Assembly (NCBI GenBank): GCA_030141605.1
Contig: JAQGDQ010001255.1
Location: forward strand, 1-51,734
DNA length: 51,734 bases
Source of the DNA: Tubiluchus corallicola
Lineage: Eukaryota > Animalia > Priapulida
Direction of reading: 5' to 3'
Shown here: positions 14,701 to 51,734 of the stretch, in pieces
How positions within the stretch are numbered: the first letter of the stretch is position 1
Layout: the number at the start of each line of letters is the position of its first letter
Program-made: the position numbers and the translations under genes
The notes under the pieces: model-generated
Databases searched by the model: none
What the model was told of the DNA's origin: nothing
The model's input: the letters and a program-made list of their open reading frames with translations, nothing else

Positions 14701-17700
14701 TTTTCCATGATACTCAAAGCCAGTTAAGTAGGTTTTCGTTTCCATGGTTGTTGGACTACATCGTCACAATGGTACTCAAAACTAGTTGCTAAATAGGTTT
14801 TCGTTTCCATGGTACTCAAAGCTAGTTGCTAAGTAGGTTTTCTTTTCCATGGTATTCAAAGCTAGTTAAGTAGGTTTTTTCCATGGTACTCAAAGCTAGT
14901 TGCTAAGTAGGTTTTCTTTTCCATGGTACTCAAAGCCAGTTAAGTAGGTTTTCTTTTCCATGGTACTCAAAGCTAATTGCTAAATAGGTTTTCTTTTCCA
15001 TGGTACTCAAAGCTAATTGCTAAATAGGTTTTCTTTTCCATGGTACTCAAAACTAGTTGCTAAATAGGTTTTCTTTTCCATGGTACTCAAAACTAGTTGC
15101 TAAATAGGTTTTCGTTTCCATGGTACTCAAAACTAGTTGCTAAATAGGTTTTCTTTTCCATGGTGCTCAAAACTAGTTGCTAAATAGGTTTTCTTTTCCA
15201 TGGTACTCAAAACTAGTTGCTAAGTAGGTTTTCTTTTCCACGGTACTCAAAGCTAGTTAAGTAGGTTTTTTCCATGGTACTCAAAGCTAGTTGCTAAGTA
15301 GGTTTTCTTTTCCATGGTACTCAAAGCCAGTTAAGTAGGTTTTCTTTTCCATGGTACTCAAAGCTAATTGCTAAATAGGTTTTCGTTTCCATGGTACTCA
15401 AAGCTAGTTGCTAAGTAGATTTTCTTTTCCATGGTACTCAAAGCTAGTTGCTAAGTAGGTTTTCTTTTCCATGGTACTCAAAGCTAGTTGCTAAGTAGGT
15501 TTTCTTTTCCATGGTACTCAAAGCCAGTTAAGTAGGTTTTCTTTTCCATGGTACTCAAAGCTAATTGCTAAATAGGTTTTCGTTTCCATGGTACTCAAAG
15601 CTAATTGCTAAATAGGTTTTCTTTTATATGGTACTCAAAGCTAATTGCTAAATGGGTTTTCTTTTCCATGGTACTCAAAACTAATTGCTAAATAGGTTTT
15701 CTTTTCCATGGTACTCAAAACTAGTTGCTAAATAGGTTTTCTTTTCCATGGTACTCAAAGCTAGTTGCTAAGTAGGTTTTCTTTTCCATGGTACTCAAAG
15801 CCAGTTAAGTAGGTTTTCTTTTCCATGGTACTCAAAGCTAATTGCTAAATAGGTTTTCTTTTCCATGGTACTCAAAGCTAATTGCTAAATAGGTTTTCTT
15901 TTCCATGGTACTCAAAACTAGTTGCTAAATAGGTTTTCTTTTCCATGGTACTCAAAACTAGTTGCTAAATAGGTTTTCGTTTCCATGGTACTCAAAACTA
16001 GTTGCTAAATAGGTTTTCTTTTCCATGGTGCTCAAAACTAGTTGCTAAATAGGTTTTCTTTTCCATGGTACTCAAAACTAGTTGCTAAGTAGGTTTTCTT
16101 TTCCACGGTACTCAAAGCTAGTTAAGTAGGTTTTTTCCATGGTACTCAAAGCTAGTTGCTAAGTAGGTTTTCTTTTCCATGGTACTCAAAGCCAGTTAAG
16201 TAGGTTTTCTTTTCCATGGTACTCAAAGCTAATTGCTAAATAGGTTTTCGTTTCCATGGTACTCAAAGCTAGTTGCTAAGTAGATTTTCTTTTCCATGGT
16301 ACTCAAAGCTAGTTGCTAAGTAGGTTTTCTTTTCCATGGTACTCAAAGCTAGTTGCTAAGTAGGTTTTCTTTTCCATGGTACTCAAAGCCAGTTAAGTAG
16401 GTTTTCTTTTCCATGGTACTCAAAGCTAATTGCTAAATAGGTTTTCGTTTCCATGGTACTCAAAGCTAGTTGCTAAGTAGATTTTCTTTTCCATGGTACT
16501 CAAAGCTAATTGCTAAATAGGTTTTCTTTTCCATGGTACATAAAGCTAATTGCTAAATGGGTTTTCTTTTCCATGGTACTCAAAACTAATTGCTAAATAG
16601 GTTTTCTTTTCCATGGTACTCAAAACTAGTTGCTAAATAGGTTTTCTTTTCCATGGTACTCAAAACTAGTTGCTAAGTAGGTTTTCTTTTCCATGGTACT
16701 CAAAGCCAGTTAAGTAGGTTTTCTTTTCCATGGTACTCAAAGCTAATTGCTAAATAGGTTTTCGTTTCCATGGTACTCAAAGCTAGTTGCTAAGTAGATT
16801 TTCTTTTCCATGGTACTCAAAGCTAGTTGCTAAGTAGGTTTTCTTTTCCATGGTACTCAAAGCTAGTTCCTAAGTAGGTTTTCTTTTCCATGGTACTCAA
16901 AGCCAGTTAAGTAGGTTTTCTTTTCCATGGTACTCAAAGCTAATTGCTAAATAGGTTTTCGTTTCCATGGTACTCAAAGCTAGTTGCTAAGTAGATTTTC
17001 TTTTCCATGGTACTCAAAGCTAATTGCTAAATAGGTTTTCTTTTCCATGGTACTCAAAGCTAATTGCTAAATGGGTTTTCTTTTCCATGGTACTGAAAAC
17101 TAATTGCTAAATAGGTTTTCTTTTCCATGGTATTCAAAACTAGTTGCTAAATAGGTTTTCTTTTCCATGGTACTCAAAACTAGTTGCTAAGTAGGTTTTC
17201 TTTTCCATGGTACTCAAAGCCCTTTAAGAAAATGAAATAGTGATAAGATAAAAGAACAAGTGTTCATTATTATAACCTTAATATCAAGATTATTATTACT
17301 GGTAGTGCAAACTCACAATTAATCAAAATGTAAAAACTTAACCCAATTAATTAATTAGATTCCCCCTAATGTGAGTGATTTAACATTAGAAATTGCTGAA
17401 TTTGGTTGACAATCTGGTTTTGATGAACTTTGAACTGCCTTGTCAACCGGGGAATACGGTCGCCTAGCGGTCTATGCCATTTGCCTGTTCCCTGGTTCGA
17501 ATCCAGACTGCTTCCTAACTTACTCACATTTCCTGTCTTTTAAGTTTTTTTTTATCAAATTACAGTTAATTGCAGACTTGTTCGATTATTAACAAGGTCT
17601 TTTTGTGCCTAAAAAGGTGTCTTGTTAAATAAATATATAAAATGTGAAAATATTACTAAGTATATTAATAATATTACTTAGCAGTATCTCTGGATAAACA

Positions 17701-20700
17701 GTCAAATGCAGCAGTCTCTTTGTGCACAATCCAAATCTACACAGTGCACAAGCCTCGAAGTTTCTTATTCTCTTGTGCAAATGTCATTTAATTGACGATT
17801 GACAACCATAATTTTGTCCTCTCGTTTTGTAAAACTTTGTCAAATAATTATTTCAATTCTTCAGACTGTTGTTAGGTTTGCCGGAAATAGAGTTATCAGC
17901 CGATCCAAATGCAGCACCTTCCATTTTACAAAGACTGGACAAAGATGGATCTTTACTGCAGGGACCTCCGGGATATCAGGTATTTAAAAGAACCAATTGC
18001 CTGAGTATTTAACTTACGTATCATGAAAATACCATGAATTAAACGATGCAATAACTCAGTACCACAATGACTCAGTACCACAATGACTCTGTACTACAAT
18101 GACTGAGTACGACAACGACTGAGTACCACAATGACTGAGTACCACAATAACTCAGGATCACAATGACTCAGTACCACAGTGACTCAGTACCACAGTGACT
18201 CAGTACCACAATGACTCAGTACCACAATGACTCAGTATCAACAAGAACTCAGTACCACAATGACTCAGTATCACAATGACTCAGTACCACATTGACTGAG
18301 TACCACAGTGACTCAGTACCACAATGACTCAACACCACAACGACTCAGAACCACAACGACTTAGTACCACAATGACTCAGTACCACAATGATTCAGTGCT
18401 ACAATAAACTATTGAAAAGATCATGGAAAACGAGATTTTCAGCTAGTTACCTTGATTTTAATTTTGGATAAGTGAAAGTAACTCCATACAGTGGCCATCA
18501 CGAAACAAGTTTTATCTTTTCCGGAAGGTTTGCAATTTTATTGGAAATAAATACCCGCTTTTCTTATTATACATCATAAGCTGCAGGAAAATGTGTCCGC
18601 ATTTGTTTTTCAAATTTCTCGTACAGTTACGTCAGTTAAATACAGTAATGCCTTTTCACATGATAACTTAATAAGAAAGTAACGTTCTAGTAAAACTCAA
18701 GTTGCCTAGAAGTAGATTTGCTTTATTTCTGTGCCAATTTTTTGTCTCAGGGTATTAAGCAAACCTAATGAACCGGAATCCCCTCAGAAATGTGCTACAC
18801 AGATAAATCAGCTATACTACTTCACTGCTTTTGATGTCCATATACTGCTTAGCAATGATTAGATTTTTTATAAGCTGCATTGAATTTTTTTCTGCAGGTG
18901 AAATACGTTGTCGATCCTCGTTATATGAAAGCCGGTGAAACTCGACTGTTTGTGCGTCATCTTTGTTCGCAGACACTTCACATCGATGTCTGGGACGGTG
19001 ACAGCTTGCTTCTCATTGGCTCTTGTGCAGTGGAACTCAAACATTTGTGTAGACAGGGCAGATTGGCTGTTCAGGTAATTTGAAAATTATTAGCCTCTGG
19101 CAGGCCAAATACATTACACAGAATTATTGGAAGGGAAGAAAAGTGTTTTTTAATGCAAGTTTTAGAAAAAAAGAGGTTCAAAAACTACATTGGTTAATAT
19201 AAATCTTTCGAACATATATTACTTGTGTTAACAAACATTTCCATTTGTTTTTGTTTTGAAATTACGTGTAAAACTACTGCATGTGCATCATTATATTACA
19301 GTGGAGTAGTTTTGCAGTGGTATAGTGAACAGCGGAGTAGTGTTAAAGCAGAACAGTGAACAGCGGAGTAGTGTTAAAGCAGAACAGTGAACAGTGGAGT
19401 AGTGTAACAGTATAATAGTCAACAGTGGAGTAGTGTAACAGTACAGTAGTGAACAGTGGAGTAGTGTTACAGTGCAACAGTGAGCAGTGGAGTACTGTTA
19501 CAGTGCAATAGTGAACAGTGGAGTAGTGTTACAGTACAGTAGTGAACAGTGGAGTAGTGTTACAGTACAGTAGTGAACAGTGGAGTAGTGTTACAGTACA
19601 GTAGTGAACAGTAAAGTAGTGTTACAGTACAGTAGTGAACAGTGGAGTAGTGTTATAGTACAGTAGTGAACAGTGGAATAGTGTTACAGTACAGTAGTGA
19701 AAAGTGGAGTAGTGTTACAGTGCAACAGTGAGCAGTGGAGTAGTGTTACAGTGCAATAGTGAACAGTGGAGTAGTGTTACAGTGCAATAGTGAACAGTGG
19801 AGTAATGTTACAGTGCAGTAGTGAACAGTGGAGTAGTGTTACAGTACAGTAGTGAACAGTGGAGTAGTGTTACAGTACAGTAGTGAACAGTGGAGTAGTG
19901 TTACAGTGCAGTAGTGAACAGTGGAGCAGTGTTACAGTACAGTAGTGAACAGTGGAGTAGTGTTACAGTACAGTAGTACTGAACAGTGGGGTAGTGTTAT
20001 AGTGCAGTAGTGAACAGTGGAGTAATGTTACAGTGCAGTAGTGAACAGTGGAGTAGTGTTACAGTACAGTAGTGAACAGTGGAGTAGTGTTACAGTACAG
20101 TAGTGAACAGTGGAGTAGTGTTACAGTGCAGTAGTGAACAGTGGAGCAGTGTTACAGTACAGTAGTGAACAGTGGAGTAGTGTTACAGTACAGTAGTACT
20201 GAACAGTGGGGTAGTGTTATAGTGCAGTAGTGAACAGTGGAGTAATGTTACAGTGCAGTAGTGAACAGTGGAGTAGTGTTATAGTACAGTAGTGAACAGT
20301 GGAATAGTGTTACAGTACAGTAGTGAAAAGTGGAGTAGTGTTACAGTGCAACAGTGAACAGTGGAGTAGCGTTACAGTGCAATAGTGAATAGTGGAGTAG
20401 TGATACAGTGCAACAGTGAACAGTGGAGTAGCGTTACAGTGCAACAGTGAGTAACAGTGAACAGTGGAGTAGTGTTACGGTGCAACAGTGAACAGTGGAG
20501 CAGTGTTACAGTGCAGTAGTGAACAGTGGAGTAGTGTTACAGTGCAGTAGTGAACAGTGGAGTAGTGTTACAGTACAGTAGTGAACAGTGGAGTAGTGTT
20601 ACGGTGCAACAGTGAACAGTGGAGTAGCGTTACAGTGCAATAGTGAATAGTGGAGTAGTGATACAGTGCAACAGTGAACAGTGGAGTAGCGTTACAGTGC

Positions 20701-32700: not shown

Positions 32701-35700
32701 CTGCTAACACGGTTCACGAGATACACGTCGGAGTCAGACCGCTGCAGACCGGGACGCGATTTTTGTAATTAATTAATGAATCGTTTGTCGGACGTATTTT
32801 GCGCAACACGTAGAACGATTGTAGGCTTAGATGAAATTGTTTTAGTAAGACAGATTAGCCAGAAAACGATTCCACGCAAAGTTGCATGTGATGTTTACTC
32901 CAAGATAGGAACAGATATGGGGAATTTCAGGACAAAATGCAAAAAATCAATAATATTTTGTTCTCTAAAATGCAAGTAGTATTTTGAGTGCATTGTGTGA
33001 TGGTTAGTAATGATGTACCATTGTAGTAATTCAAATTTATGTCACACTGAGTCACATGGCACATAGTTACTAGTGTTGCTCCGGGTATCCGATTTGTATC
33101 CGAAAATGGTGATATTCGCGAGATTTTGCTGATATTCGTATCCGATATTATCTGATAGTTATAAAAATTAAATATTCGCTATCCGGTTTTCGTAATGTGC
33201 AATTGAAAACGCTTTTCAAATAATTTAACAGCCGAGAATAAATAAAATATTACCAAAAAACTTACAGATCATTTTAGCCTATGTCTGAGTTTTCAAGACG
33301 AAAATTAAAAACATCTATTTTTGTTTGTGTGTAATAATACGGTGTATCTTCGGGCTAGGTTCCTTTAAGATGATAGACTAAACGAAAACGCTAAAGTTTG
33401 CAAACATTTACTAATTTTTCATCATCAGAACTGATCCGCATATTTGATCCGAATTTAGCTAATCTATCCGGGTATAATCCGAATCCGGAAGTCAATTTGA
33501 GGACATATTTAATGGTATCCAGTATCCAGCAAAAAAGTGTATCCGTAGCAACACTAATAGTTACCAAGTTTGCAAGTTTATGTTGAAAATTTCATGGTAC
33601 TGTATACATAGCTCACAAAGTGTGCAATTTGTATGTTCCTACTATTTTGTATGTTTTATCTGGCATTGTCTGTCTTTGCTAAAAGTTTTCTATTTTTTTC
33701 ATTTTTGACTTCTTTAATTTATTGGTTTGTGTCTCACTGGTTTGTTTTTGTTATTTTTGTAGGTTCGTGAATGTCGTTGATGTCGAATTCCATCAGCTGT
33801 TGCGCTCGTGGCTCGTCTGTGTGACATGTCAACCGCCTGTAATTACCAAGGTGTTTGAGCTGCAGTTACCTGCGGGCGGGGGTCATGGTTCAAACAAGGT
33901 AGGTTTCAACCCCCTGTAATTACCATGGTGTTTGAGCTGCAGTTACCTGCGGGCGGGGGTCATGGTTCAAACAAGGTAGGTTTCAACCGCCTGTAATTAC
34001 CAAGGTGTTCGCGTTGCAGTTACCTGCGGGCGGGGGTCATGGTTCAAACAAGGTAGGTTTCAACCGCCTGTAATTATCAAGGTGTTTGAGCTGCAGTTAC
34101 CTGCGGGCGGGGGTCATGGTTCAAACTAGGTAGGTTTCAACCGCCTGTAATTACCAAGGTGTTTGAGCTGCAGTTACCTGCGGGCGGGGGTCATGGTTCA
34201 AACAAGGTAGGTTTCAACCGCCTGTGATTACCAAGGTGTTCGAGTTGCAGTTACCTGTGGGCAGGGGTCATGGTTCAAACAAGGTAGGTTTCAACCGCCT
34301 GTGATTACCAAGGTATTTGAGCTGCAGTTACTTGTGGGCGGGGGTCATGGTTCAAACAAGGTAGGTTTCAACCGCCTGTAATTACCAAGGTGTTTGAGCT
34401 GCAGTTACCTGTGGGCGGGGGTCATGGTTCAAACAAGGTAGGTTTCAACCGCCTGTGATTACCAAGGTGTTCGAGTTGCAGTTACCTGTGGGCAGGGGTC
34501 ATGGTTCAAACAAGGTAGGTTTCAACCGCCTGTGATTACCAAGGTATTTGAGCTGCAGTTACTTGTGGGCGGGGGTCATGGTTCAAACAAGGTAGGTTTC
34601 AACCGCCTGTAATTACCAAGGTGTTTGAGCTGCAGTTACCTGTGGGCGGGGGTCATGGTTCAAACAAGGTAGTTTTTAACCGCCTGTAATTACCAAGGTG
34701 TTTGAGCTGCAGTTACCTGTGGGCGGGGGTCATGGTTCAAACAAGGTAGGTTTCAACCGCCTGTGATTACCAAGGTGTTTGAGCTGCAGTTACCTGCGGG
34801 CAGGGGTCATGGTTCAAAGAAGGTAGGTTTCAACTGTTTGTGATTACCAAGGTGTTTGAGCTGCAGTTACTTGTGGGCGGGGGTCATGGTTCAAACATGG
34901 TAGGTTCCGTATCATTTAATTTTTTAGTACTTTTTCACAGTGTTGTCACATGTCACATTGTTTTCACATTACTGCAACTTGGAAATTTTGCCGGTGATCG
35001 TTATAGTTTTTTGAAGATTATTTATTTTTGTATAGTGTAAAATCCTTATAAATACATGCTTGAACGCTGTACAGAGTGGCAAAAGAACATAAAGCTAATA
35101 CTAATGTGATCATTTAAAACAGATAAATAATACAAAATTTTGCAAGAAAAACTGTGTAAAATAAAATATGTGTTATAAAATAGTTAATCAAGCCGTTAGG
35201 AAGAAACAGTTCACTCCATATCAGCTTGAAATGTGAAAATCACAGTAAAACTCCCGCATATTTCCATCACAATAATAACAATAAAATTCGATTTGGTTAT
35301 AGAACTGCAAAACTTTATTAGTAACATTTTTTTTCATTGGCTTCGTTTATGCAGTGCTGGTGACCCAGAGATTTGTTAGCAGATGATGTTTTTGTTTCAA
35401 TGTACGTCATACATGACGATTTTGTTCATAATGCAAAAGAGTGACGGAAAAACAAATAAAATACTACGAACCAAAATAAAACAGTCTGTTTTCTCAAATG
35501 TTGCCTTTCGTAGCTTCTAACATCAAATTAATTAACTTCATATGAAGCTTGACAAAATGAAGCTGTTTTTGCTTACAAACATATATTGTATGTGATATTC
35601 ACTGTGACTAAGTGTGGGAGTATCAAGTTCCATTATTACGCATACGTTTTGATATTGCAGAAGATAACGTATACTAACCCATACGCTCAGAGGCGAGTCT

Positions 35701-37285: not shown

Positions 37286-38055
37286 AATAGACTTTGAGCT
37301 TTGATGATACGGTGTTTAATCTGTGGTGACAAATGTAAAAACTTAACAACATTTCACTGAAAATTGATGCACCATTTTAACTCTAATTACACAACTATTT
37401 GATACTTAACACAACATAATTGTGGAAAGTTGTAATGATGATGAGAAGTGGACAATGTCTGTGTGTAAGTTTCTGCTGACCAACACGGATTAATACTTAA
37501 CTCATGTACACACAAAAAATTGCACATAAACCCACGCCACTATATCCTTACCACCCACACCACGCCACACCCACCATGCTACCCACACTACACCACACCA
37601 TCATGCCACTGCCATTGCAGATGATGATGATGATAAGATTGATGCAATTTGAAATTGTGCAATGAAAAACGCTAGACCATCCACCAATAATTAGAAATGC
37701 ACACTGCTTCCATAATGACGGTATTGCAACCTAGGTTGCTAACTCTTAACAGATAGCTTTATACAGCCAACATAAAACTGATGAAACAGTCTGTAGGTAG
37801 AATATAATGGGTGACATCCAACAATGGATAACGCCCTACGCAATCCACATTTCGTAGTTCGCAACTCGCACTGAGAGCTGCAAAAAAACAAAAAAAAACT
37901 AAGTTTGAGTAAGGCCGCGTTTCCACTGCGTCCGCACAGACACAGACTTTTCTATCCGCACGTGTTACATCCGCAAAAGTTGTTTCCAATGGGACCGCAA
38001 TCATTCGTAAAATACGCCATCAATGAGCCAAAAGTTTGGCGCGAAATTCTAAACA

Positions 38056-38369
38056 TGAGACTTTCTAGAAGAAAGAAGATTTTTAATTTGCCGTGGTGGT
38101 TAAAGAAAAATGCAAGTAAGCGATACAGGAAGCAACAGCCACATTTTTGGGTACATCCAATATTTGAAAACTGTGGGCAGCTAAGTGAATATCATCATTT
38201 GTTGCAACAAGTTGTAATGGATGAAGAAAAGTGCCTTGGTTATTTGAGAATGCAACCTGCAACTTTCCGAATTTTACTTGATTTGTGTTCTGAATATCTT
38301 AAGAAACAGTACGCAAATTTTCGGGATTGTATTTCACCAGAACAGCGCCGTGTAGTTACGCTAGGGTAA
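38056..38369 (+). pseudogene. Harbinger transposase N-terminal fragment
   Basis: FWVHPI...EYHHLL...YLRMQPATF..LLDL...LKKQ..NFRDCISPEQR.VVTL is the typical Harbinger/HARBI1-like N-terminus; DDE core absent. Confidence 0.82.
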
Positions 38370-38689
38370 ACAGAGTCAACAACTAATTAACTGTATCTTA
38401 GCATGAAATTATTATTCAAATTTTCAGAAATATTATTACACGTGTACTATATATAGTTAATGTCTAATTTTAATTATTATCGAGACTTTCAATTTACATT
38501 AACACTTACAATTCACATTTACATTCCACAATAACAATTTGGTTAGCATACATGTGCGTTATGAAACTCGAAACAAAAGAAATGTTGTAATCTTGTGCTT
38601 GCGTTATGCAACAATATAGGTTTCAGCACTGGATAATGAATTCTTGCCTAAGTATTTGGGCTAACAATGGACATCATTCCACCACCATA

Positions 38690-39365
38690 CTCTGGTGCAT
38701 TTTCTTTTACACTTCAATACGAAACTGCAAGTTCTTAAATGGGTCAAGTTGCCGCATCATTGGCACTAAACTCTGAAAAAAGCTCGTGACAATTTTTCAA
38801 TTGGTTGTGAAGACAAACGGTAGCACTTTCAATGAAATCTTGTGCTAAGCCTTAAAATTATCTACTGTAGCGTTTCTCCTTCTTATTACTAATATGTTGC
38901 AGTTGATTATGATTTTGCACGTCCATATGTTGCAATTTTTGCAACGTGTTTTCTAAGGGAATTTAAATAGACTAGTTGAATTCACTTCAAATAAAAAAGT
39001 GGCTTTTATTATAAAACTAACAATGTTTTGAAGCTTATTATTTTCTCCCTGTAACAGCGCAACAAAGCAATGTAATTTTCAGGGCAAAATCGAAATATTG
39101 TGGCAATAGAGAGTATAAGTACATGTATATACTACAAATGTAAAAAATGCATGCATCATAGCATCGGAAAATCAAGCCTAAATTTACAGGAACGTTAATT
39201 TAAAAACAAAACTACATAATAATTATATTCTATCTTGAGTATTAAGCTGAAAGGCCTCTTCGGCCCACAGCTATCTTGTAAAAACCCTGTGGCAGCATTT
39301 GGGATTACTTTTGTCATACAAAAAGGTCTGATCTCCACAGCGTGTACGAACTGTTCGTCCTCCAT
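38690..39365 (-). pseudogene. Harbinger accessory gene remnant (MADF/Myb-SANT N-terminus, BESS-like C-terminus)
   Basis: MEDEQFVHAVEIRPF/YDKSNP...LWAEEAFQL (with frameshift and stop) and FQSLVPMMRQLDPFKNLQFRIEV* at 38780-38709. Confidence 0.6.
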
Positions 39366-39619
39366 TATAAAAACGAGCTTATCCGTCCGCACAAAAAAAG
39401 GCCAAACAATTAAAGTGCGGAGCCGTGCGTATACATGGCTTTCCGTGCGGACGCAGTGGAAACGACATACACGTAAAACAATGGTATTCAAAGGCAGGCC
39501 ATTGTATCAATTTTTCCCGTGTGAGTCATATGAAAAAGTCTGTATCTGTGCCAGCGCAGTGGAAACACGGCCTAACTCCGCCACATTATCGTGTAGCCCA
39601 ATTCTTCCTCTTTCCAAAG

Positions 39620-40112: not shown

Positions 40113-41387
40113 TCTTAACAGTATGAGCGATGTATATATCTCCCTTTAACACCCCAATCAGTTGCCGTACGGATGTCTTTCCTACGCGTTGTTCCCCTTC
40201 AGTCAAAACTAGAAAAACATCGGCTAGTTGCTGGACTGTGGACACCACGCGGCCTTCCCGGGATGTCCAAATACTCCTACTACACACATCTTTGAGCAGG
40301 CTAACCACCCATTAGCCATCACCGGTCCTCTCGAAATAAAAAGTAAGTTTTGCAGAAAAAACACGGGAAAATGGCCAGTTGTTGACGTTTTTGGTCCTCA
40401 CTTCCTCCCGGTGGACTCGTCGAAAAATGAACCACCAATGTTACAACCTTGGACTGATGTACACCATAGTTAAAGAAAGGACGTCACTTTGCATATAGGA
40501 TTATGTCATGTTACAGCTTTACATAGAAATGTAGAAAGATACATAACAAAAAAATTGGAAAGAACTGTGTATAGAGCATGAAAATTAAATAACTTATACT
40601 GTAAAGCCGCTGTAAAGACATTTTCAGGTAACTGACATTCATTCGAAAATTGTGACGTAACTGGTGGACTTCGTGGCATTTCGTGAATACATAGTGGTTT
40701 GCCGTAAGCGCGTGCTTAAATTATTCACACTTCTGCAACTTACTCAACGTTTATGGAAAAATATCACAAAATTAGCTATCTAATTTTTTTGCAAAAACTG
40801 GTACTTTTGACAGAAGTGCCCTGCTTTTCTTCATGCCAATGAACGATGTTATTTATTATTGGTGGAAGAAGAGCGTTCAAAATGGGAGCAACAAGCGCTT
40901 TAAAGTAATTATATAAATTAAACGATCAAGGCGCCTATCTCACTTTTCTACTTCGCAAAAGGATTAGGCTTTTGTTTAACCTGTAAGCAGCATAGTGTAA
41001 TATTCTCTAAAAAATATAATCATCGGAATTTTAATATTGTTTACACGCACTATGGACGCAGCCATTATGGATGCTCTTATGTTATGCACATCTTCGCTAT
41101 TCGGTGAGCACACCAGATGCTGACCGAAAGATAAACACAGGGCGATGAAACTTTAGAACCCGGTGAATTCCCGGTTTGGAAAACAAGAAAATAAAAACAA
41201 AAAGGATCAAACATAAGCTGATAAATTAGATTAAATGTAGACAAACATATGCGCTGTTAAAAAAGAGCAAAACAAATTGATGAAATTATAATTAGAAGAC
41301 TGAAAGTAACAAAGTGTAATGAACAGCCCACCCCTCGGTTACAATGCACAATCCATGGTAACTTAGCGACGCCGACGCTCAGGCGGC

Positions 41388-41395
41388 TATATAAA
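41388..41395 (+). promoter_or_regulatory. LTR TATA box (TATATAAA)
   Basis: GC-flanked CTATATAAAGGG, present in both LTRs. Confidence 0.7.
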
Positions 41396-41477
41396 GGGAG
41401 GGCCAGGCCATTGACCACACACATCCGAACACTTTCAAAGTGATAAAGAACTACAGCAACTAAAGATTCATCTAAAC

Positions 41478-41500
41478 ATGGAAAAGAAGCAGGATGAGAA
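41478..41500 (+). CDS. Predicted first coding mini-exon of ORF3 inside the LTR (MEKKQDE+AA)
   Basis: First ATG after the TATA box, context AAACATGG, followed by donor GTAAGC (GTAAGT in the 3' LTR); phase 2 matches the acceptor at 49057. Confidence 0.65.
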
Positions 41501-41569
41501 GTAAGCTTTAACTTACTAGATAAAGCTAGCTTTCAAAACTAGCTAGGATGTGTCAGAATCTAGAACCTA

Positions 41570-42466
41570 GAAAAGAGTTCCAGAAATGAAAAAAGTTCCA
41601 GAAACACTAGGTTCTAGAAACCAAAAGAGAAGCTAGAAAAGGGTTCCAGGATTAAAGCAGTTGCAGAGACAAAAATAGTTCCAGAAAGTTTCTAGATTTA
41701 AAAGAGTTGCTGAGAGTTCCAGGAAAATCCAAGGTCAAAACAGTTCGAGAAATTTCCTGGAATTAAAAGAGTTGCAGAAATTTCCAGGAATTAAAAGAGT
41801 TGCAGAAAGTTCCTGGAATTAAAAGAGTTGCAGAAAGTTCCTGGAATTAAAAGAGTTCCAGAAAGTTCCTGGAATTAAAAGAGTTGCAGAAAGTTCCTGG
41901 AATTAAAAGAGTTGCAGAAAGTTCCTGGAATTAAAAGAGTTCCAGAAAAAGAGTTGCAGAAAGTTCCTGGAATTAAAAGAGTTCCAGAAAATTCCTGGAA
42001 TGAAAGAGTTCCAGAAAACTCCTGGAATGAAAGAGTTCCAGAATTGAAAAGAGTTGCAGAATTAAAAAGAGTTCCAGAATTGAAAAGAGTTGCAGAATTA
42101 AAAAGAGTTGCAGAATTAAAAAGAGTTCCAGAATTGAAGAGTTGCAGAATTGAAAAGAGTTGCAGAATTAAAAAGAGTTCCAGAATTGAAAAGAGTTGCA
42201 GAATTAAAAGAGTTGCAGAATTAAAAGAGTTGCAGAATTGAAAAGAGTTCCAGAAATGAAAAGAGTTGCAGAAAGTTCCTGGAATTAAAAGAGTTGCAGA
42301 ATTAAAAGAGTTCCAGAATTGAAGAGTTGCAGAATTGAAAAGAGTTGCAGAATTAAAAAGAGTTCCAGAATTGAAAAGAGTTGCAGAATTAAAAGAGTTG
42401 CAGAATTGAAAAGAGTTGCAGAAAATTCCTGGAATGAAAAAGTTCCACTTGAAAAAAAGTTGCAGA
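41570..42466. repeat. Satellite array inside the 5' LTR, core AAAAGAGTT(G/C)CAGAATT, 17-18 and 29 bp units
   Basis: Direct periodicity. Confidence 0.95.
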
Positions 42467-42979
42467 TCACAAGTTAGCTAGCTATTGATCCGGGGTTATT
42501 CGAGATCTTATACAAATAAGTGAAAGAAGAGACTGGATCATAGTTTTGCTCACTTTTAGTTAAATATGGAACAGGAACATAGTACAAATACACAGGATTG
42601 GCATGAAAATTGCAACTGCTTAATCTTACTGAAACCTGGACTCTAGCATTCTTTGCATGACCAATTGCAATTGCTATAGAAGATTTCTTTAACTAGAAAC
42701 AAGAATAGTATTGATGATTGTGGATTTTACCTAACTAAAATTAGCTGTATTTTATAGTAAAGCCAATAGAATAAATTATTTTTAATCTTAGTTCACTTGT
42801 TGTTGCTTTTACTCAGTTTAAATTTGAATTACAAGTAGCCTCAAGATATTGTCAAAGCTGAACCCAACATTTTTTTTATGTAAAAATAAAGTAAAATAAA
42901 GTTAGTTGCAGAAGTCAATGATAGGTGGCACTTTAACCTAATATCATACCCTTAAGCCGAGCTGTGCCACACTACATTT

Positions 42980-42997
42980 TGGGGGCTCGTCCGGGAT
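42980..42997 (+). promoter_or_regulatory. Primer binding site, tRNA-Pro
   Basis: TGGGGGCTCGTCCGGGAT is the 18-nt complement of the tRNA-Pro 3' end. Confidence 0.95.
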
Positions 42998-43067: not shown

Positions 43068-44495
43068 ATGACAGCTATATTATCCTACTTAAAATCCTTT
43101 CTGACTTCCACTCCTAAAAGTAGCACTGATACAATTGTGGGAGCACAAAATACAGAGGTCCACACAGAAAATGCTATGCATAAGATGGAAACAGATGGAG
43201 CAGAACAAGATAGAAAATTCAGCAAGAGAAGAGCAACACTCCCAGCAGCACTGCAAAAAGAAGAAAGCTTGCAGCCGACTACATTACAGATAACACCATC
43301 TGTAAAACCAAAAACAACTTTATCCAATCTCGGTACACCTAGTACTGAAAGCAAGCGAAAACGTGCGAGACATACAGGCTGGATTGAAGCACCACCTGTA
43401 GAAGTACATTCACCATGGTCAGAATGGTCAACAGAGGGAAATGCATCAGAAGCTGGTGAAGAAGTAGAACCAAGATGGCCACATATAAGTTATACAACAC
43501 CAAATCAGCCTGAAGTTGGATGGACACCACTGCCCCATCTTACCAGACAGTCAACTCCAACTGCGACAACACAAGCAAAAGGAGCAGGCAAAATACGCAA
43601 AGAAAAGAAGCCTCCTACTTTTAAAACAGGAGATGGCTTGCAGTTCAGACAATTTATTGCAAAGTTTGAACTAGTTGCAAAACACAACAATTGGCCAAGA
43701 ACTGAATGGGTTACCCACCTACCCTTATGCTTGGAAGGGGATGCACTTGAAGTTGCCATGGAAATGGATTTGGATTCTGGTGAAGTGACTTACATGTCAC
43801 TCATCCAAGCACTGGGTAAACGCTTTGATCCGGCTGAACGCATGCTACAACATCGCAGTGAGCTGAGGCATCGAATGAGAAAATTAAGTGAAACTCCGGA
43901 AGAATTTGGAGCTACAGTTCGACGTTTGTTTGGCTTAGCCTATCCTGGTTTGTCAAAAGAAGCTAGTGAAGCTTTACTAATTGATAAATACCTGGAAGGA
44001 CTTGGTGACATAGAAGTCAGAAAGCATGCCAGCCTCCAGGAACCAAAAACGCTTGAGGATGCAATAACAAAAGTTGCACAATATGAGGCAGTGACTAAGG
44101 AGGCCGCCGAAGCTAGAAGCAAGAAGCCGCTACAACCGAGAATCAACCAAGTGAATTATACACACAAAGCATCATCAAGCAAAGAAATAACTTTGGAAGA
44201 AATTATGAAAGAGCTGAACAGTGTAAAATACCAGCTGCGTGAACTCACTAATACTGAAAAACAAGAAAAGAAGTTTAATGTTGAATCAAATATGCAAAAA
44301 CAAAATGAGGTGAGAAATCAAAATGACTGGCGTGCGAAGGTTGAATGTTACTACTGTCACAAGCCTGGACATGTGATGAGATTTTGCAGAGAAAGATTTC
44401 CCAAGATGACACAGTTTTCGATAGCTACATCTCCAAAAAGACCAAGAGAAGAAGCTGTTGGTTCTGAAAACCAGGTACGCAAGCAGTTAAACTAA
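43068..44495 (+). CDS. gag: Gag polyprotein (475 aa)
   Basis: Capsid-like FIAKFELVAKHNNW...LEGDAL segment; CCHC knuckle CYYCHKPGHVMRFC. Confidence 0.93.
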   Translation: MTAILSYLKSFLTSTPKSSTDTIVGAQNTEVHTENAMHKMETDGAEQDRKFSKRRATLPAALQKEESLQPTTLQITPSVKPKTTLSNLGTPSTESKRKRARHTGWIEAPPVEVHSPWSEWSTEGNASEAGEEVEPRWPHISYTTPNQPEVGWTPLPHLTRQSTPTATTQAKGAGKIRKEKKPPTFKTGDGLQFRQFIAKFELVAKHNNWPRTEWVTHLPLCLEGDALEVAMEMDLDSGEVTYMSLIQALGKRFDPAERMLQHRSELRHRMRKLSETPEEFGATVRRLFGLAYPGLSKEASEALLIDKYLEGLGDIEVRKHASLQEPKTLEDAITKVAQYEAVTKEAAEARSKKPLQPRINQVNYTHKASSSKEITLEEIMKELNSVKYQLRELTNTEKQEKKFNVESNMQKQNEVRNQNDWRAKVECYYCHKPGHVMRFCRERFPKMTQFSIATSPKRPREEAVGSENQVRKQLN

Positions 44496-44572
44496 AGGAG
44501 ACCGGGCACGGGGCCAGTGTCCCGGTCATGAATACACAGGCCTCAGGAATACTACCTTGCACTGGCCCCGTG
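44486..44572 (+). promoter_or_regulatory. -1 ribosomal frameshift signal with pseudoknot
   Basis: G TTA AAC, 7-nt spacer, stem 44500-44506/44521-44527, loop 44507-44519 complementary to 44560-44572; pro is in the -1 frame and open to this site. Confidence 0.75.
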
Positions 44573-47500
44573 ACGGGAAAGCAAGAGGTAGTTGTAGCTC
44601 TGAACAAAGAAGAAGTAGTTATTCCTCCTCACTCCGATCTGATAAAGAAGAGAAGTGAGAACATTGTAGTTCTACCAGTAGATTATAAATATTGTTGGCA
44701 TGTAGAATTATTAATCAACAGTTTAGATGTAGATTTTGTAATCGATAGTGGAGCCAGTGCTAGCATATTAGATGTTTACATGTATTATAGTATTCCGGAA
44801 GAAGAAAGACCAGTCTTGAAAAGCGCTGAAAAGAATCTTCAAGCAGCTAGTGGACACACACTGATTCAAATGGGAGAAGCTGAATTCCAAGTTATATTAG
44901 CTGGAATAAGTCACACTGATTCAAATGGGAGAAGCTGAATTCCAAGTTATATTAGCTGGAATAAGTACCACTAGTACAATGATTGTCGCTTCCATTGGAG
45001 GGCCTTTCGGAATTTTAGGATTAGATTTTCTTGAACCAAGAAGTGCTGTGCTAGATATGCAGCAAGGAATTCTCCATATTGGTGAAGTTACTATACAATG
45101 TTTCAAGAATTCAGTGGATAGTTCAGACTATGAACATGAGTCTTCTTCAGATAATCAGATTGACTTAGTGTTGCCAGAAAATATTGGTGAAAGGGCAGCT
45201 CCAAAATCTCTGCTCCCTGAGCACTTGCATCAACTAATAGAAGAAATCAGCTCTAAGCTTTCACCTAGTGAGCAATCTTCTCTCATAAATTTGATACAGG
45301 AATATCAGGATATATTTGTGGGGCCCGATAATAAATATGGCAGGACAAACTTGGTAAGACACGTTATTGACACTGGTACTGAGCACCCAGTTAAACAAGC
45401 TCCGAGAAGACTGGCTGAACAGAAAAGAGCCATTGCTGAAGCTGAAATAAATAAAATGCTCAAAGAACAAATTATTGAACACAGCAACAGTCCCTGGGCC
45501 TCACCGATCGTGTTGGTGACTAAAAAGGATGGCTCCACACGATTTTGCGTTGATTATTGTCAGTTAAATGAAAAGACAATTAAAGATGGGTTTCCACTGC
45601 CAAACATTCAAGAGATTTTTGACACATTACGTGGGTCCCACTGGTTCTCTACTTTCGACCTAGCTAGCGGGTATTGGCAAGTTGAAATGGATGAAACGTC
45701 GAAGCCTAAAACAGCTTTTGTTACACGACAAGGATTATTTCAGTTTCGAGTGATGCCGTTTGGCCTTTGTAATGCACCAGCCACATTTGAGAGGTTAATG
45801 GAAGAAGTACTTAGAGGCTTACAATGGAAGAATTGTCTTGTCTATCTCGATGATATTATTGTTTTTGGCAAAAACTTTGAAGAGGCTAAAAATAATTTAA
45901 AGACAGTATTTTCTCGCTTGAGGAAAGCAAATTTGAAAATCAAGCCATCAAAAAGCACACTGTTTCAGACAAGTGTTCGGTTCCTAGGGCATGTAGTGGA
46001 TAGTCAAGGCATCCGATGTGATCCAGACAAAATACTGGCTGTAAAGAATTGGACATTCCCAAAAACACCTACACAAGTACGTAGCTTCTTGGGATTTGCT
46101 TTATATTATAGAAAATTCATTCCACATTTTGCCTCAATTGCAGACCCCCTTACTGCCTTGACAAAGAAAGGAGCAACATTTATTTGGAATGATTCATGTA
46201 TGGCAGCATTTAACACCTTAATAGATCTTTTAACACGAAGTCCTGCATTGGCATATCCAACACAGGAGGGAAAATTCATCTTAGATACAGATGCCAGTAA
46301 CTCTGGGATTGGAGCTGTTTTATCCCAGTTACAAGTCGATGAAGAGAAAGTCATTGCTTATGCTAGTAGGACATTAAACCAGTCACAAAGGCAGTACTGT
46401 ACTACAAAAAAAGAATTACTGGCTGTTATCACATTTGTAAAACAATTCCACCATTATCTATGGGGAAGACATTTTAGGATTCGGACTGATCATGCAGCAC
46501 TAACTTGGCTCATCAATTTCAAGAACCCAGAAGGTATGATAGCAAGATGGTTATCTATTTTAGACACTTATGATTTTAGTGTTGAGCATAGAAAAGGAAC
46601 ACAACATGGGAATGCTGATGGATTATCCAGAAAACCAAATACAAGGGTTAGCAAATGCCCAAGAGAGGACTGTAATGACGACAGGCATAAAGGCACGAAA
46701 GAAGCCCACAGTTCTAAAGAAATTAGCAAGAGGACACGTAACGATATTTTAAAAGTTCCAAACAATGCTGAGTGTGATTTTATCTATGCAATACCAGCTG
46801 GAAATGGAGAAGAGGAAAGCAGTAGTTTCAGAAAAGGTAAAGTAAGATGTAGAAAAGAATGCTTATGCATGGAAGGTAATTCCAGAAAGGGGGAAGATGG
46901 ACTTGACAATGTTTATGAAGACCAGGAAGCAGCGCACAGACTGTGCATAACAGAGGCACCTACTTGTGGAAAGGATGCAGCGCACGACTTGTGTTCTGTA
47001 GAGGCTCCTGGTGATATCAGGGAAGCAGCGCAGAAATCGTGTTTGGTAGAGGCTCCTCCTCATATGGAAGAAGCAGCGCACGATTTGTGTTTAGGAGAGG
47101 CTCCCTATATGGCTGAGGAAGCAGCGCATGGTTCATGTTTTGTAGTGGCTCCCAGCAGAATATTGGCAAGTCAAGAAATAGAGGTAGAAGATGAAGAAGA
47201 GAAAAAGTTTGTTTTAGATTTGTCAAGAGAAGATGTTATTAACATGCAACAGGAAGAGGAAGCAGTTTTGTTATTCAAGGAGTTGAAAGAAGAAGATTTG
47301 GACCGACCCAGCTGGAAAGATGTGAAAGATAAACACCCAGATTTCAAGGCATACTGGAACTTGTTTGATGTATTAGAGGTACGAGATGGATTGCTGTACA
47401 AGAAGTGGGAAACAGATGTAACACCAAGTGCTCCTGTATACCAGATGGTTGTACCAACTGCATTACGAAGGAAATTATTTAGAGCTTTGCATGAAACCAG

Positions 47501-48768
47501 AACTGGTGCACACCAAGGAATACAGAGGAGTCTGTCATTATTAAAGCAACGGTATTACTGGCCAGGTTATCAGGCAGACATTAAAAGATGGTGCCTATAT
47601 TGTGCTGCTTGTGCCAGAAGAAAACCTGGAAAAGGACCAAAAAGAGGTAAACTGCAACAACAGAGGGCAACTGGACCATTTGAAAGAATAGCAATAGACA
47701 TTTTAGGACCACTAGAAGAGACTGATAAGAAAAATAAGGTGGTGATGGTCGTCTGTGACTATTTTACAAAATGGGCCGAAGCCTATGCACTTCCTAATCA
47801 CGAGGCATATACTGTTGCAGATGTGTTGGTGACCGAATTTATATGCAGGTTTGGAGTACCAATTCAAATACATAGTGACCAAGGGCCAGACTTTGAGTCA
47901 AAGTTATTTCAAGAAATGTGTGCTGCTTTGCAGATTGACAAAACAAGGACAACCCCGTATCATCCACAATCAGATGGTCTCGTTGAGAGATTTATGAGGA
48001 CATTACAGCAAATGCTGGCTATATTTGTTAACGATCATCGTGATGACTGGGATGACCACCTCCCTTATGTCATGATGGCATACAGGGCAACCGCACATGC
48101 GTCTACCAATTGCTCGCCAAACTTAATGATGTTTGGTAGGGAAAACCATTTGCCATTAGATGTGATGGTGGGACCTCCACCACAGCCAGAAAGACCTACA
48201 CAGTGTCCACAGGAATACGTAGAATGGATAAGAGATGTTATAAAAGAGGCACACAATTTTGCTCGAGAATCACTGGGAAAAGCTGCAGAAAGACAAAAAC
48301 GAGATTATGATCAATTTGTGAAAAGGCTTAGCATTGATAAAGGTAACTGGGTATGGTACTGGTATCCACCAGCTACCAGGAGAAAATTAGGCCAAGGCTG
48401 GCAAGGCCCATATCTAGTACTAAAGAAGATTAATAATGTGACATACCAAATCCAGAGAGATGCAAAAGCTCCTGTTAAAGTAGTTCATATTGACAACTTG
48501 AAGCTTTATCATACTGATGAACCACCAATAGACTGGACAGAAATAGAGAAACTAGCAAATTCTGATGATGAACAGCAACTAGAAGAATTTGAATTGAGTA
48601 GAATTTTTCCTACAGTTAATGAAGAAGTAGCAGAGAAAGAAGAAATGTATACAACAGGAACTACCACAATTCAAGAAAAAAAATGATGAACCGTCCAGTA
48701 GCACTTCTGACACAATGCTAGGAAGAGGACAGCGGATGAGGAAACCTCCAAACAGACTTGACCTATAA
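44486..48768 (+). pseudogene. pol: Pol (PR, RT, RNase H, IN), frameshifted by a 55-bp duplication and in an A8 run near the C-terminus
   Basis: PR FVIDSGAS; RT SPWASP, MPFGLCNAPATF, YLDD; RH DTDAS, TKKELLA, RTDH; IN HHCC, IDILGP, HSDQG, GLVER, GPY. Confidence 0.95.
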
Positions 48769-49057
48769 CTTAACCATATTTTCTTCCTTTCCTCTGCTGC
48801 TGCATTAATTTTCTGTTAAAAGCTGTTATCTGGATTAGTTGCCCTGGGCAAGGCATTAAACTGCATCCAGCATAAGAAAAAAAAATATAGAAAAGTATGA
48901 GTTAGTGACACTTGATAATCACATGTCACTTAGAAATGTGTCACTTATTACAATTACAATGTAGAAAAAAAAGAAATAGGCAAAGGTACCTTAGTAAAAA
49001 AAAAACGTAACAGTGGAAAATGAAGTTATTAAAACACTGTTATTTTGTCTATTTTAG

Positions 49058-50006
49058 GAGGGAGACAGTGTACTGTTGTACAAACTGTGACTATAGGTCT
49101 CAAAGGACTGCCTATATGTCAAAACACTGGAAGGCATGTCATGGGAGTAGACAAATTCCCGCTACTTGGCCAACTAAGCGTCTTGAAAGGCCACCTCAGG
49201 CAACCTCTGTTGATAAAAGACCTCTGTCACCAGAAGGATCACCAAGATTGAGCCGCTCCAAATGGAGTACAACTAGTGACAGCAGTCTGGAAAGAAAAGA
49301 CGGGAAGAAAGAGCGAGATTTAAAGAGTCATAATCAGAGGTCGGAACAGGAAAGCAAAATCAAAACAGCAAAATCACCCAAAACAAAAAGAGGAACTTCC
49401 CCAGTTACAGTAAGGCCTGAGTTAAGTAATCCGAAGAACAGGGCCTTCAAGCCACCAACAAGCAACTCAACCTTCAGAAATTTCAGAAGCAGAAGTATTG
49501 TGAGGCAGAACAGCACCCATAACCTGACCAACCAAGTTAGAAAACCAACTAGACCTGCCTTACCACACTATAAACCATACAAGGAAACACAGTCGAAAAA
49601 TCTGCCAGTATTCCTTGCACCGCAGTCGGACAAGGTGCCACGAAAAGCTCCACCTCCATGCACAGAGCTAGATCAGATAGTCATGAGGGAAAAGATATTA
49701 AAATTAAAAAATGAGATCATGGAACTAGAGGAGCGATGCAGGGTAGCAGCTCTAAATAAGTGGGAAGCAGTTTTAGAGAAGAAGAGTAAAGAAATTACGG
49801 AGAAGAAAGAAAAAGAGTGGAATGAGGCAGTTGATCGTATGTATGAGAGAATGGAAACAACTGTAAGCAAGTTGGTGAGAAAGGAGGTGGAAAAGTTGGC
49901 TGAAAAGAAGAACACTGAAGGTCAACAACAAATGCCACCCACAAATACAGATATTTCTATAGATCTAGCTGTCTCCTCGGATGACTTCTCCAGTGAAGAG
50001 GACTAA
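49058..50006 (+). CDS. ORF3: C2H2 zinc finger, basic disordered region, coiled coil, acidic tail (not env); second exon of a predicted spliced mRNA
   Basis: Uninterrupted ORF 49020-50006; CTNC-x12-H-x4-H; no signal peptide or TM stretch; acceptor tattttgtctattttAG at 49057. Confidence 0.8.
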
Positions 50007-50445: not shown

Positions 50446-50458
50446 AAGAAAGGGGGAA
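50446..50458 (+). promoter_or_regulatory. Polypurine tract
   Basis: AAGAAAGGGGGAA immediately before the 3' LTR. Confidence 0.9.
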
Positions 50459-50459
50459 T

Positions 50460-51734
50460 TGTAATATTCTCTAAAAAAAATATAATCATCGGAATTTTAA
50501 TATTGTTTACACGCACTATGGACGCAGCCATTATGGATGCTCTTATGTTATGCACATCTTCGCTATTCGGCGAGCACACCAGATGCTGACCGAAAGATAA
50601 ACACAGGGCGATGAAACTTTAGAACCCGGTGAATTCCCGGTTTGGAAAACAAGAAAATAAAAACAAAAAGGATCAAACATAAGCTGATAAATTAGATTAA
50701 ATGTAGACAAACATATGCGCTGTTAAAAAAAGAGCAAAACAAATTGATGAAATTATAATTAGAAGACTGAAAGTAACAAAGTGTAATGAACAGCCCACCC
50801 CTCGGTTACAATGCACAATCCAGGGTAACTTAGCGACGCCGACGCTCAGGCGGCTATATAAAGGGAGGGCCAGGCCATTGACCACACACATCCGAACATT
50901 TTCAAAGTGATAAAGAGCTACAGCAACTGAAGATTCATCTAAACATGGAAAAGAAGCAGGATGAGAAGTAAGTTTTAACTTACTAGATAAAGCTAGCTTT
51001 CAAAACTAGCTAGGATGTGTCAGGAATCTAGAACCTAGAAAAGAGTTCCAGAAATGAAAAGAGTTCCAGAAACACTAGGTTCTAGAAACCAAAAGAGAAG
51101 CTAGAAAAGGGTTTCAGGATTAAAGCAGTTGCAGAGACAAAAAGAGTTCCAGGAAAATCCAAGATTTAAAAGAGTTGCTGAGAGTTCCAGGAAAATCCAA
51201 GATTTAAAAGAGTTGCTGAGAGTTCCAGGAAAATCCAAGATCAAAAGAGTTCCAGTAATTTCCAGGAATTAAAAGAGTTCCAGTAATTTCCAGGAATTAA
51301 AAGAGTTGCAGAAATTTCCTGGAATTAAAAGAGTTGCAGAAATTTCCTGGAATTAAAAGAGTTGCAGAAATTTCCTGGAATTAAAAGAGTTGCAGAAATT
51401 TCCTGGAATTAAAAGAGTTGCAGAAAATTCTTGGAATGAAAGAGTTCCAGAATTAAAAGAGTTGCAGAATTAAAAGAGTTCCAGGAATTAAAAGAGTTCC
51501 AGAATTAAAAGAGTTGCAGAATAGAAGAGTTCCAGAATAAAAGAGTTCCAGGATTAAAAGAGTTGCAGAATAGAAGAGTTCCAGAATTAAAAGAGTTGCA
51601 GAATTGAAAAGAGTTGCAGAATAGAAGAGTTCCAGAATTAAAAGAGTTGCAGAATTGAAAAGAGTTGCAGAATTGAAAAGAGTTGCAGAATTTAAAGAGT
51701 TGCAGAACTTAAAGAGTTGCAGAATTTAAAGAGT
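50460..51734 (+). repeat. 3' LTR (partial), satellite from ~51038 to the window end
   Basis: Direct repeat of 40996 onward with scattered substitutions and A-run indels. Confidence 0.95.

Follow-up and report, generated by a model that had tools for sequence, protein, structure and literature searches.

The Ty3/Gypsy element and its surroundings

The window, meaning the whole stretch of 51,734 nucleotides that was analysed, contained a Ty3/Gypsy LTR retrotransposon from 40996 to its end. The assignment was based on the LTR pair, the primer-binding site and the polypurine tract, which were all present, and all parts of the element lay on the forward strand. The 5' LTR (TG...CA; 40996..42976) carried a TATA box at 41388 and a tandem array of 16-28 nt units at about 41550-42460. 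It was followed by a primer-binding site (42980..42997, read from the sequence), which we take to be of the tRNA-Pro type. gag (43068..44495) encoded a Ty3 capsid-like domain and a CCHC knuckle. pol (44468..48686) encoded protease, RT, RNase H and integrase, and the Pfam matches gave the order PR-RT-RH-IN after gag, as in Ty3/Gypsy. The polypurine tract was read at 50446..50458, and the 3' LTR (50460..51734) ran past the window end. The unique parts of the two LTRs were 98.4% alike over 558 nt, so the insertion was young. pol was split in the protease region into ORFs at 44468-44938 and 44910-48686. This single frame break was absent from Logan contigs of the family from runs X1 and X4, indicating that it was particular to this copy or to the assembly. 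The nearest relatives by RT-RNase H showed 60-74% identity, one of them being in the pearl oyster Pinctada imbricata (64%). Many came from metagenome bins for symbionts of invertebrates, and we infer that these represent host DNA. The relatives thus make a marine invertebrate host likely.

Repeats were found at several places. An in-frame 48-nt tandem repeat of about four copies (46925-47153) lay in pol, in the linker that joins RNase H to integrase, and the copy number was not the same in one X5 contig. The LTR array (41550-42460 and 51020-51734) contained 27 two-unit and 3 three-unit motifs resembling heat-shock elements, and 12 STAT-like TTC-N3-GAA motifs. Elsewhere in the window there was less than one per equal length, and the array counts were inflated by repeat amplification. 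The element may be responsive to heat or immune signals, as judged from these motifs. Outside it, inverted-repeat-bounded elements lay at 1-2059 (396-nt arms, cut by the window start) and 37907-39578 (45-nt arms). A frame overlapping the latter resembled, by eye, what we take to be a decayed PIF/Harbinger nuclease. Satellite arrays occupied 9500-10700 and 13950-16200 (period 40 nt each), 18000-18470 (16 nt), 19170-20500 (31 nt) and 33675-35050 (77 nt).

ORF3 encodes a finger, a disordered region and a long helix

A third gene, ORF3, was located between pol and the polypurine tract, with its main exon at 49058..50006. The frame was open over 331 codons (49011-50006), whereas 1000 samples generated from the pol-to-LTR region with a first-order Markov model had no frame longer than 149 codons. 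The initial annotation had described ORF3 as intact in a copy whose pol was broken, and the 331 open codons beside a pol in two frames bore this out.

The N-terminal part contained a single C2H2 finger (49071..49142). The spacing C-x2-C-x12-H-x4-H was read at 49077-49142, in agreement with the initial annotation and with the classical spacing C-x2-4-C-x12-H-x3-5-H. The only Pfam match on ORF3 was a weak one to zf-C2H2 (PF23225; E 0.0047, below cut-off). The neighbours in the Atlas were mostly C2H2 proteins, all below 0.9. In the single-sequence AlphaFold2 model, only the helix of the finger appeared (pLDDT 40-46). The finger was followed by a basic S/P/T-rich region (49149..49658), predicted to be disordered from composition and model. 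The counts over residues 31-200 (numbered from 49059) were 23% K+R, 13% S, 14% P and 9% T, with 4 SP and 6 RS/SR. The K/R/S/P/T-rich stretch with SP motifs noted earlier was thus recovered over about 170 residues, and pLDDT was mostly below 50 for residues 1-160. The E/K-rich region that had been noticed before the tail was modelled as one helix of 86 residues (49665..49922; residues 203-288) with pLDDT of about 97, at a pTM of 0.30. The helix likely forms a coiled coil, which is an interpretation of that region. A homodimer prediction for the helix scored 0.00 and was uninformative either way. The protein ended in an acidic, Ser-rich tail (49929..50003) before the stop at 50004-50006.

The highest 19-residue hydropathy was −0.05, which meant that ORF3 had no signal peptide or membrane segment, as the initial annotation had also stated. 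By this measure the signal peptide and membrane anchor of Errantivirus-type Env were absent. No F-type or gB-type fusion ectodomain was matched in Pfam or PDB, and the model consisted of disorder plus one helix. These results supported ORF3 as a real, non-Env accessory gene whose product is probably nuclear.

The tail matches a SUMO-interacting motif only loosely

The initial annotation had compared the tail with a SUMO-interacting motif (SIM). Its description of a hydrophobic core (49950-49967) followed by Ser and acidic residues was accurate. The motif itself was not matched by the strict patterns: neither of two ELM-like SIM patterns matched the tail, and neither was enriched in relatives (3/20 and 2/20 complete ORF3s, P ~0.24). 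A looser pattern, drawn up post hoc after the tail had been seen, matched the window and locus L021, or 2/20 complete ORF3s against 0.14 in shuffles. The core was not conserved in sibling copies. Its second Ile was changed in the main contig of X4, and it was gapped in a diverged copy. One psi-K-x-E site was located within the ORF3 helix. Taken from the sequence, the tail is a weakly supported candidate SIM. The ORF3 of L021 (6746-7438), a two-finger protein of a distant family, had a C-terminal end close to the SIM consensus and would be a better test case for SUMO than that of the window.

ORF3 is likely expressed by splicing

The start at 49058 given in the initial annotation was the first base past an acceptor-like AG (49056-49057). 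This predicted splice acceptor, a pyrimidine tract plus AG at 49040..49057, ranked first of the 672 AG in the internal region by a simple score built on the consensus. Finger ORFs were then picked by hand, one for each of 24 families, and in 15 of them a similar site lay at most 15 nt before a Met or before the first Cys, with a threshold set after first-pass scores had been seen. Met codons inside pol served as the control and gave 3/269, or 0.7 expected against the 15.

The ORF3 exon opened with one base before a full codon, which requires an upstream exon ending in phase 2. The predicted coding part of exon 1 (41478..41500) fitted this with a strong-context ATG, seven codons and 2 nt. A donor-like GT followed directly at 41501. 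Its score was moderate (4.7, and 5.5 in the 3' LTR copy), and the unspliced reading would be an upstream ORF of eight codons. Eight GTRAG donors were found between the TATA box and ORF3, four of which had an ATG in phase 2. The first of these four was the donor at 41501, 113 nt behind the TATA box with its ATG 23 nt upstream, and the ATG of the other three lay inside gag or pol. By chance, one donor in three would be expected to match in phase. Ten relatives were examined for donors, and a clear strong donor behind the TATA box was present in only one of them (L002, at 76 nt); L046 had a moderate one. A Gag-ORF3 fusion through two GTRAG donors in gag was rejected, being out of phase with the gag ATG at 43068. 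The search for sequencing runs containing the element listed no RNA run. Run X6, presumed to be RNA, gave two small pieces, both in the LTR, which were uninformative either way.

These sequence features suggested that ORF3 is likely translated from a spliced RNA, with the in-frame ATG at 49020 as an alternative start. The exon arrangement would resemble that of the env genes of ZAM and Beagle, which start, according to the available text of PMC12992720, with a short exon that lies before gag and encodes a peptide.

ORF3 is kept in the main sibling contigs and is under moderate constraint

ORF3 was covered by Logan contigs from two sequencing studies (X1 and X4). The main contigs of both kept the frame, with no gaps or one 3-nt gap. 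For the comparison, the best-supported 40 of 114 rows of differences were taken, and one upstream of the acceptor was left out. Synonymous changes made up 18 of the remaining 39, against 21-29% expected at transition weights of 1-6 (P 0.0004-0.016). The excess in the diverged copy alone had P 0.01-0.10. This pointed to moderate constraint on ORF3, as expected for a mostly disordered protein.

The diverged copy, called B, was about 85% alike, was present in X1 and X4, and was alignable from 49070 on. Its upstream end was unaligned but had a T-rich tract and an AG 12 bases further on, with the phase kept. The same upstream stretch also contained an in-frame ATG, so that B was compatible with splicing and with an upstream start alike. 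In copy B, the gaps in the disordered region came to a net 45 nt and were in frame, and a gap of 17 nt lay over the SIM-like core. The net indels between finger and helix came to −47, not a multiple of three, and its ORF3 was therefore probably broken. One X5 contig joined across ORF3. It skipped the integrase also, which indicated a deletion derivative.

Among relatives, ORF3 dN/dS was 0.15-0.21 in four of six pairs, two of which shared L015, and saturated in the other two. The integrase gave 0.05-0.10. By these ratios, ORF3 in relatives is under purifying selection.

Finger ORFs follow pol in many related families

Direct searches with ORF3 gave no homologue: none of 1387 candidates, restricted to near lengths, and none of 1.84 billion representatives matched, nor did any viral or metagenome contig. 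There was only one match in PDB (E 0.65), and the best Atlas neighbour stood at 0.88. Since these searches were empty, related loci were collected via the integrase instead. Viral contigs scanned with a single-sequence integrase gave no match. The metagenome scan covered 25 of 64 parts and gave 506 confirmed matches. The final set of 132 integrase-anchored loci consisted of 51 from genome bins, one viral locus and the best 80 of the 506. tblastn of ORF3 against these loci gave only matches at E 0.03 and 0.8.

A usable integrase match was present in 131 of the 132 loci, and 64 had at least 1000 nt past the pol stop. Grouping at 80% integrase identity, with L096 left out (RT follows), gave 54 families, which contained a few distant or probably bacterial integrases. 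A finger ORF was counted when it had at least 80 codons and the strict finger pattern and lay within 2 kb after pol. Such an ORF was found in the sense direction in 18 of the 54 families, including two (L109 and L114) where its status as the main ORF was unconfirmed, and in the antisense direction in 1/54 (Fisher P 1.6e-5). Four loci with short flanks outside the count had one as well (L053, L054, L098 and L103). A looser finger pattern (22/55 sense, 5 antisense) was dropped because of chance matches within long ORFs. The initial annotation had taken the gene as particular to one element; it belongs instead to a broad class. The other 36 of the 54 families had no ORF with the strict pattern, and together with the indels of copy B this suggested that ORF3 is dispensable for some copies or lineages.

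To place the window integrase, a quick maximum-likelihood tree with a midpoint root was built on 37 selected rows. It fell inside a group of 20 rows (SH-aLRT 99), with its own place within the group unsettled. Seven of the other 19 rows had too little flank, and 7 of the remaining 12 had a finger ORF. The rest were L027 with a long RS/SP ORF, L126 with an ORF cut by the contig end, and three without an ORF. Lineages with and without a finger ORF were interleaved on the tree. The third ORF of L027 (6894-9749) encoded 951 aa, in which RS/SP repeats occurred along with finger-like but non-standard clusters of Cys and His and with a helix at the C-terminus. The cut ORF of L126, its sister on the tree, began like it.

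The integrase rows nearest to the window were L053 and L056, both in a family with two-finger ORF3s. Its full-length members (P0123, P0125, P0128 and P0129; 275-335 aa) shared the layout of the window protein, namely fingers, a low-complexity middle and a charged C-terminal helix. Two fingers, the low-complexity middle and the charged helix were read in L053, L056, P0128 and P0129 (287-335 aa). In alignments A3 and A4 of this family, the fingers were followed by an N-x-x-(Y/F)-(I/V)-D-P motif. The window ORF3 had one finger and lacked the motif. hhalign of the window ORF3 against A3 and A4 gave probabilities of 6.5% and 2.9% (range 3-7%), covering the finger only. Because of this low probability, we claim a common slot and design, not common descent.

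The fingers of the relatives matched Pfam zf-C2H2 and zf-H2C2_5, and were thus of the transcription-factor type. The middle was RS/SP-rich in the window ORF3, L059 and L027, and acidic, not basic, in several relatives (L014, L073 and L087). The ORF3 C-termini of L061, L073, L080 and L087 contained T-Q-T or V-Q-T, similar to sites bound by the dynein light chain LC8. A short C-terminal segment resembling a beta-hairpin was seen in these four and in L014, L059 and L097; the window ORF3 did not have it. Other genes also occurred behind pol. The ORF of L102 (2761-3492) looked by eye like an SGNH/GDSL hydrolase, with no Pfam match at E 0.01, and this type is one reported from rotifer elements. L113 had an ORF with a macro domain and a DTX3L KH-like domain (3216-4628), 1.8 kb past pol, which was either a host gene or cargo.

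Discussion

ORF3 may be a nuclear regulator that binds and switches on its own LTR, encoded as a spliced third gene of a widespread class. This is our leading proposal, held with a little less than even confidence. Transcription would begin past the TATA box at 41388. Splicing would then join a short exon of the LTR, with coding sequence (ATG 41478, donor 41501), to 49058 and remove the remainder of the LTR together with gag and pol. Two copies of the protein would pair by means of the long helix, and the paired single fingers with their basic flanks would grip repeated sites in the LTR, for which the tandem array is the obvious candidate. The acidic tail and the disordered region could recruit host transcription or chromatin factors. 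Made early from the spliced RNA, ORF3 might act in trans on copies with a broken pol, such as the window copy. LTR activation or anti-silencing was placed first because of the transcription-factor-type fingers of the relatives, the two fingers that pairing by the helix would give, and the long tandem array in the LTR, a feature also of VANC targets (PMC6719617). Every functional step of this mechanism is inferential. One finger alone reads few bases, which speaks against LTR binding. The array lies behind the TATA box and would also be present in the RNA, which likewise argues against a reading as DNA sites.

In a different role, possible though on balance unlikely, ORF3 would act like Rev or CERV. 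Made from spliced RNA, it would use the finger and the basic RS/SP-rich region to bind genomic RNA that is unspliced, multimerise, and let this RNA avoid splicing and leave the nucleus. The predicted intron contains the 5' array, the primer-binding site, gag and pol, so the genomic RNA must escape splicing, and the RS/SP-rich middles of the window ORF3, L059 and L027 suit an export factor. CERV of Cer1, also a Ty3/Gypsy element, is spliced, nuclear, phosphorylated and required for export according to the available text of PMC10309623. ORF3, however, has no likeness to CERV and its H, M and G domains in sequence or in Pfam or PDB matches. The acidic middles of L014, L073 and L087 argue against a basic RNA-binding role. 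It is also established that Env-bearing Gypsy elements splice without a known export protein. We infer that LTR activation or anti-silencing is the likeliest role, with export close behind.

Three further explanations have lower probability. An improbable one is that ORF3 counters SUMO-dependent silencing, the finger targeting the element and the tail titrating or redirecting SUMOylated silencing factors. The hydrophobic core before Ser and acidic residues at a free C-terminus, the closer motif in the unrelated L021, the post hoc pattern at 2/20 against 0.14 and the psi-K-x-E site in the helix would fit it, but both ELM-like patterns miss the tail and are unenriched in relatives, and the core is altered in the X4 main contig and gapped in copy B. 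More improbable still is that ORF3, instead of regulating expression, tethers integration to chromatin or forms part of the particle. A finger and a long helix could conceivably bridge chromatin and integrase, but ORF3 is a separate gene unfused to integrase, and in the integrase tree the lineages that have it are mixed with those that lack it. It is most improbable that ORF3 is a captured host fragment or a chance frame without a role for the element. The initial annotation had named as grounds for doubt a host fragment missing from siblings or a Gypsy ORF already characterised. The absence of a sequence homologue, the broken ORF3 of copy B and the X5 contig that joins across it are in favour of a captured fragment. 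Against it stand the open frame, the synonymous excess, the acceptor site, the siblings in X1 and X4 that carry ORF3, and the recurrence of this slot and design across many families; the X5 contig, which skips the integrase too, is a deletion derivative. This explanation is largely refuted. No earlier characterisation of such an ORF was found in the literature searched.

A C2H2-finger class of ORF3 was not described in the full-text literature searched, and entries in Repbase, Dfam or GyDB may already note such ORFs. The term "zinc finger" was absent from the available text of a survey of env-bearing invertebrate elements (PMC13524379). Non-Env third genes are already known, from the available text of PMC5408684 and from CERV. 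A third of the scorable related Gypsy families had a finger gene in the env slot, which provides a broad candidate set of element-encoded animal regulators. We suggest, more tentatively than for ORF3 itself, that a large share of animal Ty3/Gypsy elements, so far undescribed, has the organisation of complex retroviruses, each element with its own spliced, fast-evolving C2H2 regulator that recognises repeats of its own LTR and activates the element or lifts host silencing. In a 2019 review, as far as its text was available, transposon-encoded anti-silencing was described only in plants, and none against piRNA or KRAB-ZFP pathways (PMC6719617). If true, our suggestion would mean that animal elements have equivalents of plant VANC, specific to each family, that mirror the zinc-finger repressors of the host. 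Finger ORF3s would also be a possible route for zinc-finger genes between transposons and hosts. In addition, the position of a third ORF past pol is alone no basis for annotation as env.

Comparison with known systems

Tat, Tax and Tas/Bel1 are spliced, early, nuclear LTR regulators encoded 3' of pol. To our knowledge, none of them is a classical C2H2-finger protein. ORF3 has no homology to them, and the likeness consists of the slot and the proposed role.

Among animal Gypsy elements, a single tested precedent was found, namely CERV. The available text of PMC10309623 describes a protein of 517 aa from five exons, three of them shared in frame with gag, with three folded domains, a putative C4 zinc site and a coiled-coil domain. 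CERV and ORF3 are both accessory proteins other than Env in animal Ty3/Gypsy elements. CERV is made from a spliced mRNA and combines a putative zinc site rich in Cys with a coiled coil, as predicted for ORF3. CERV is a nuclear regulator of its own element, a role that ORF3 may share. In contrast to CERV, ORF3 follows pol in the element, its finger is of the C2H2 type and most of the protein is predicted to be disordered, the architectures being compared by description.

The env of the insect errantiviruses ZAM and Beagle occupies the same slot between pol and the 3' LTR, with splicing from a short exon predicted, in the available text of PMC12992720 and PMC13524379. ORF3 is not an Env: it encodes neither a signal peptide nor a membrane anchor, and its product lacks the fold of a fusion protein. 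In bdelloid rotifers, the third slot takes non-Env, family-specific genes, typically with spliced messages, and the available text of PMC5408684 lists GDSL esterase, DEDDy exonuclease, coiled-coil and TM types. No zinc-finger type is among them, and "zinc" is absent from the main text of that paper.

VANC of Arabidopsis VANDAL elements is likewise an element-encoded accessory protein that acts on its own tandem motif (available text of PMC6719617 and PMC12859917), and its anti-silencing depends on that motif within its own element (PMC6719617). It belongs to plant DNA transposons and is an unrelated protein. Anti-silencing was shown for VANC, and ORF3 might act in this way on the tandem array of its own LTR.
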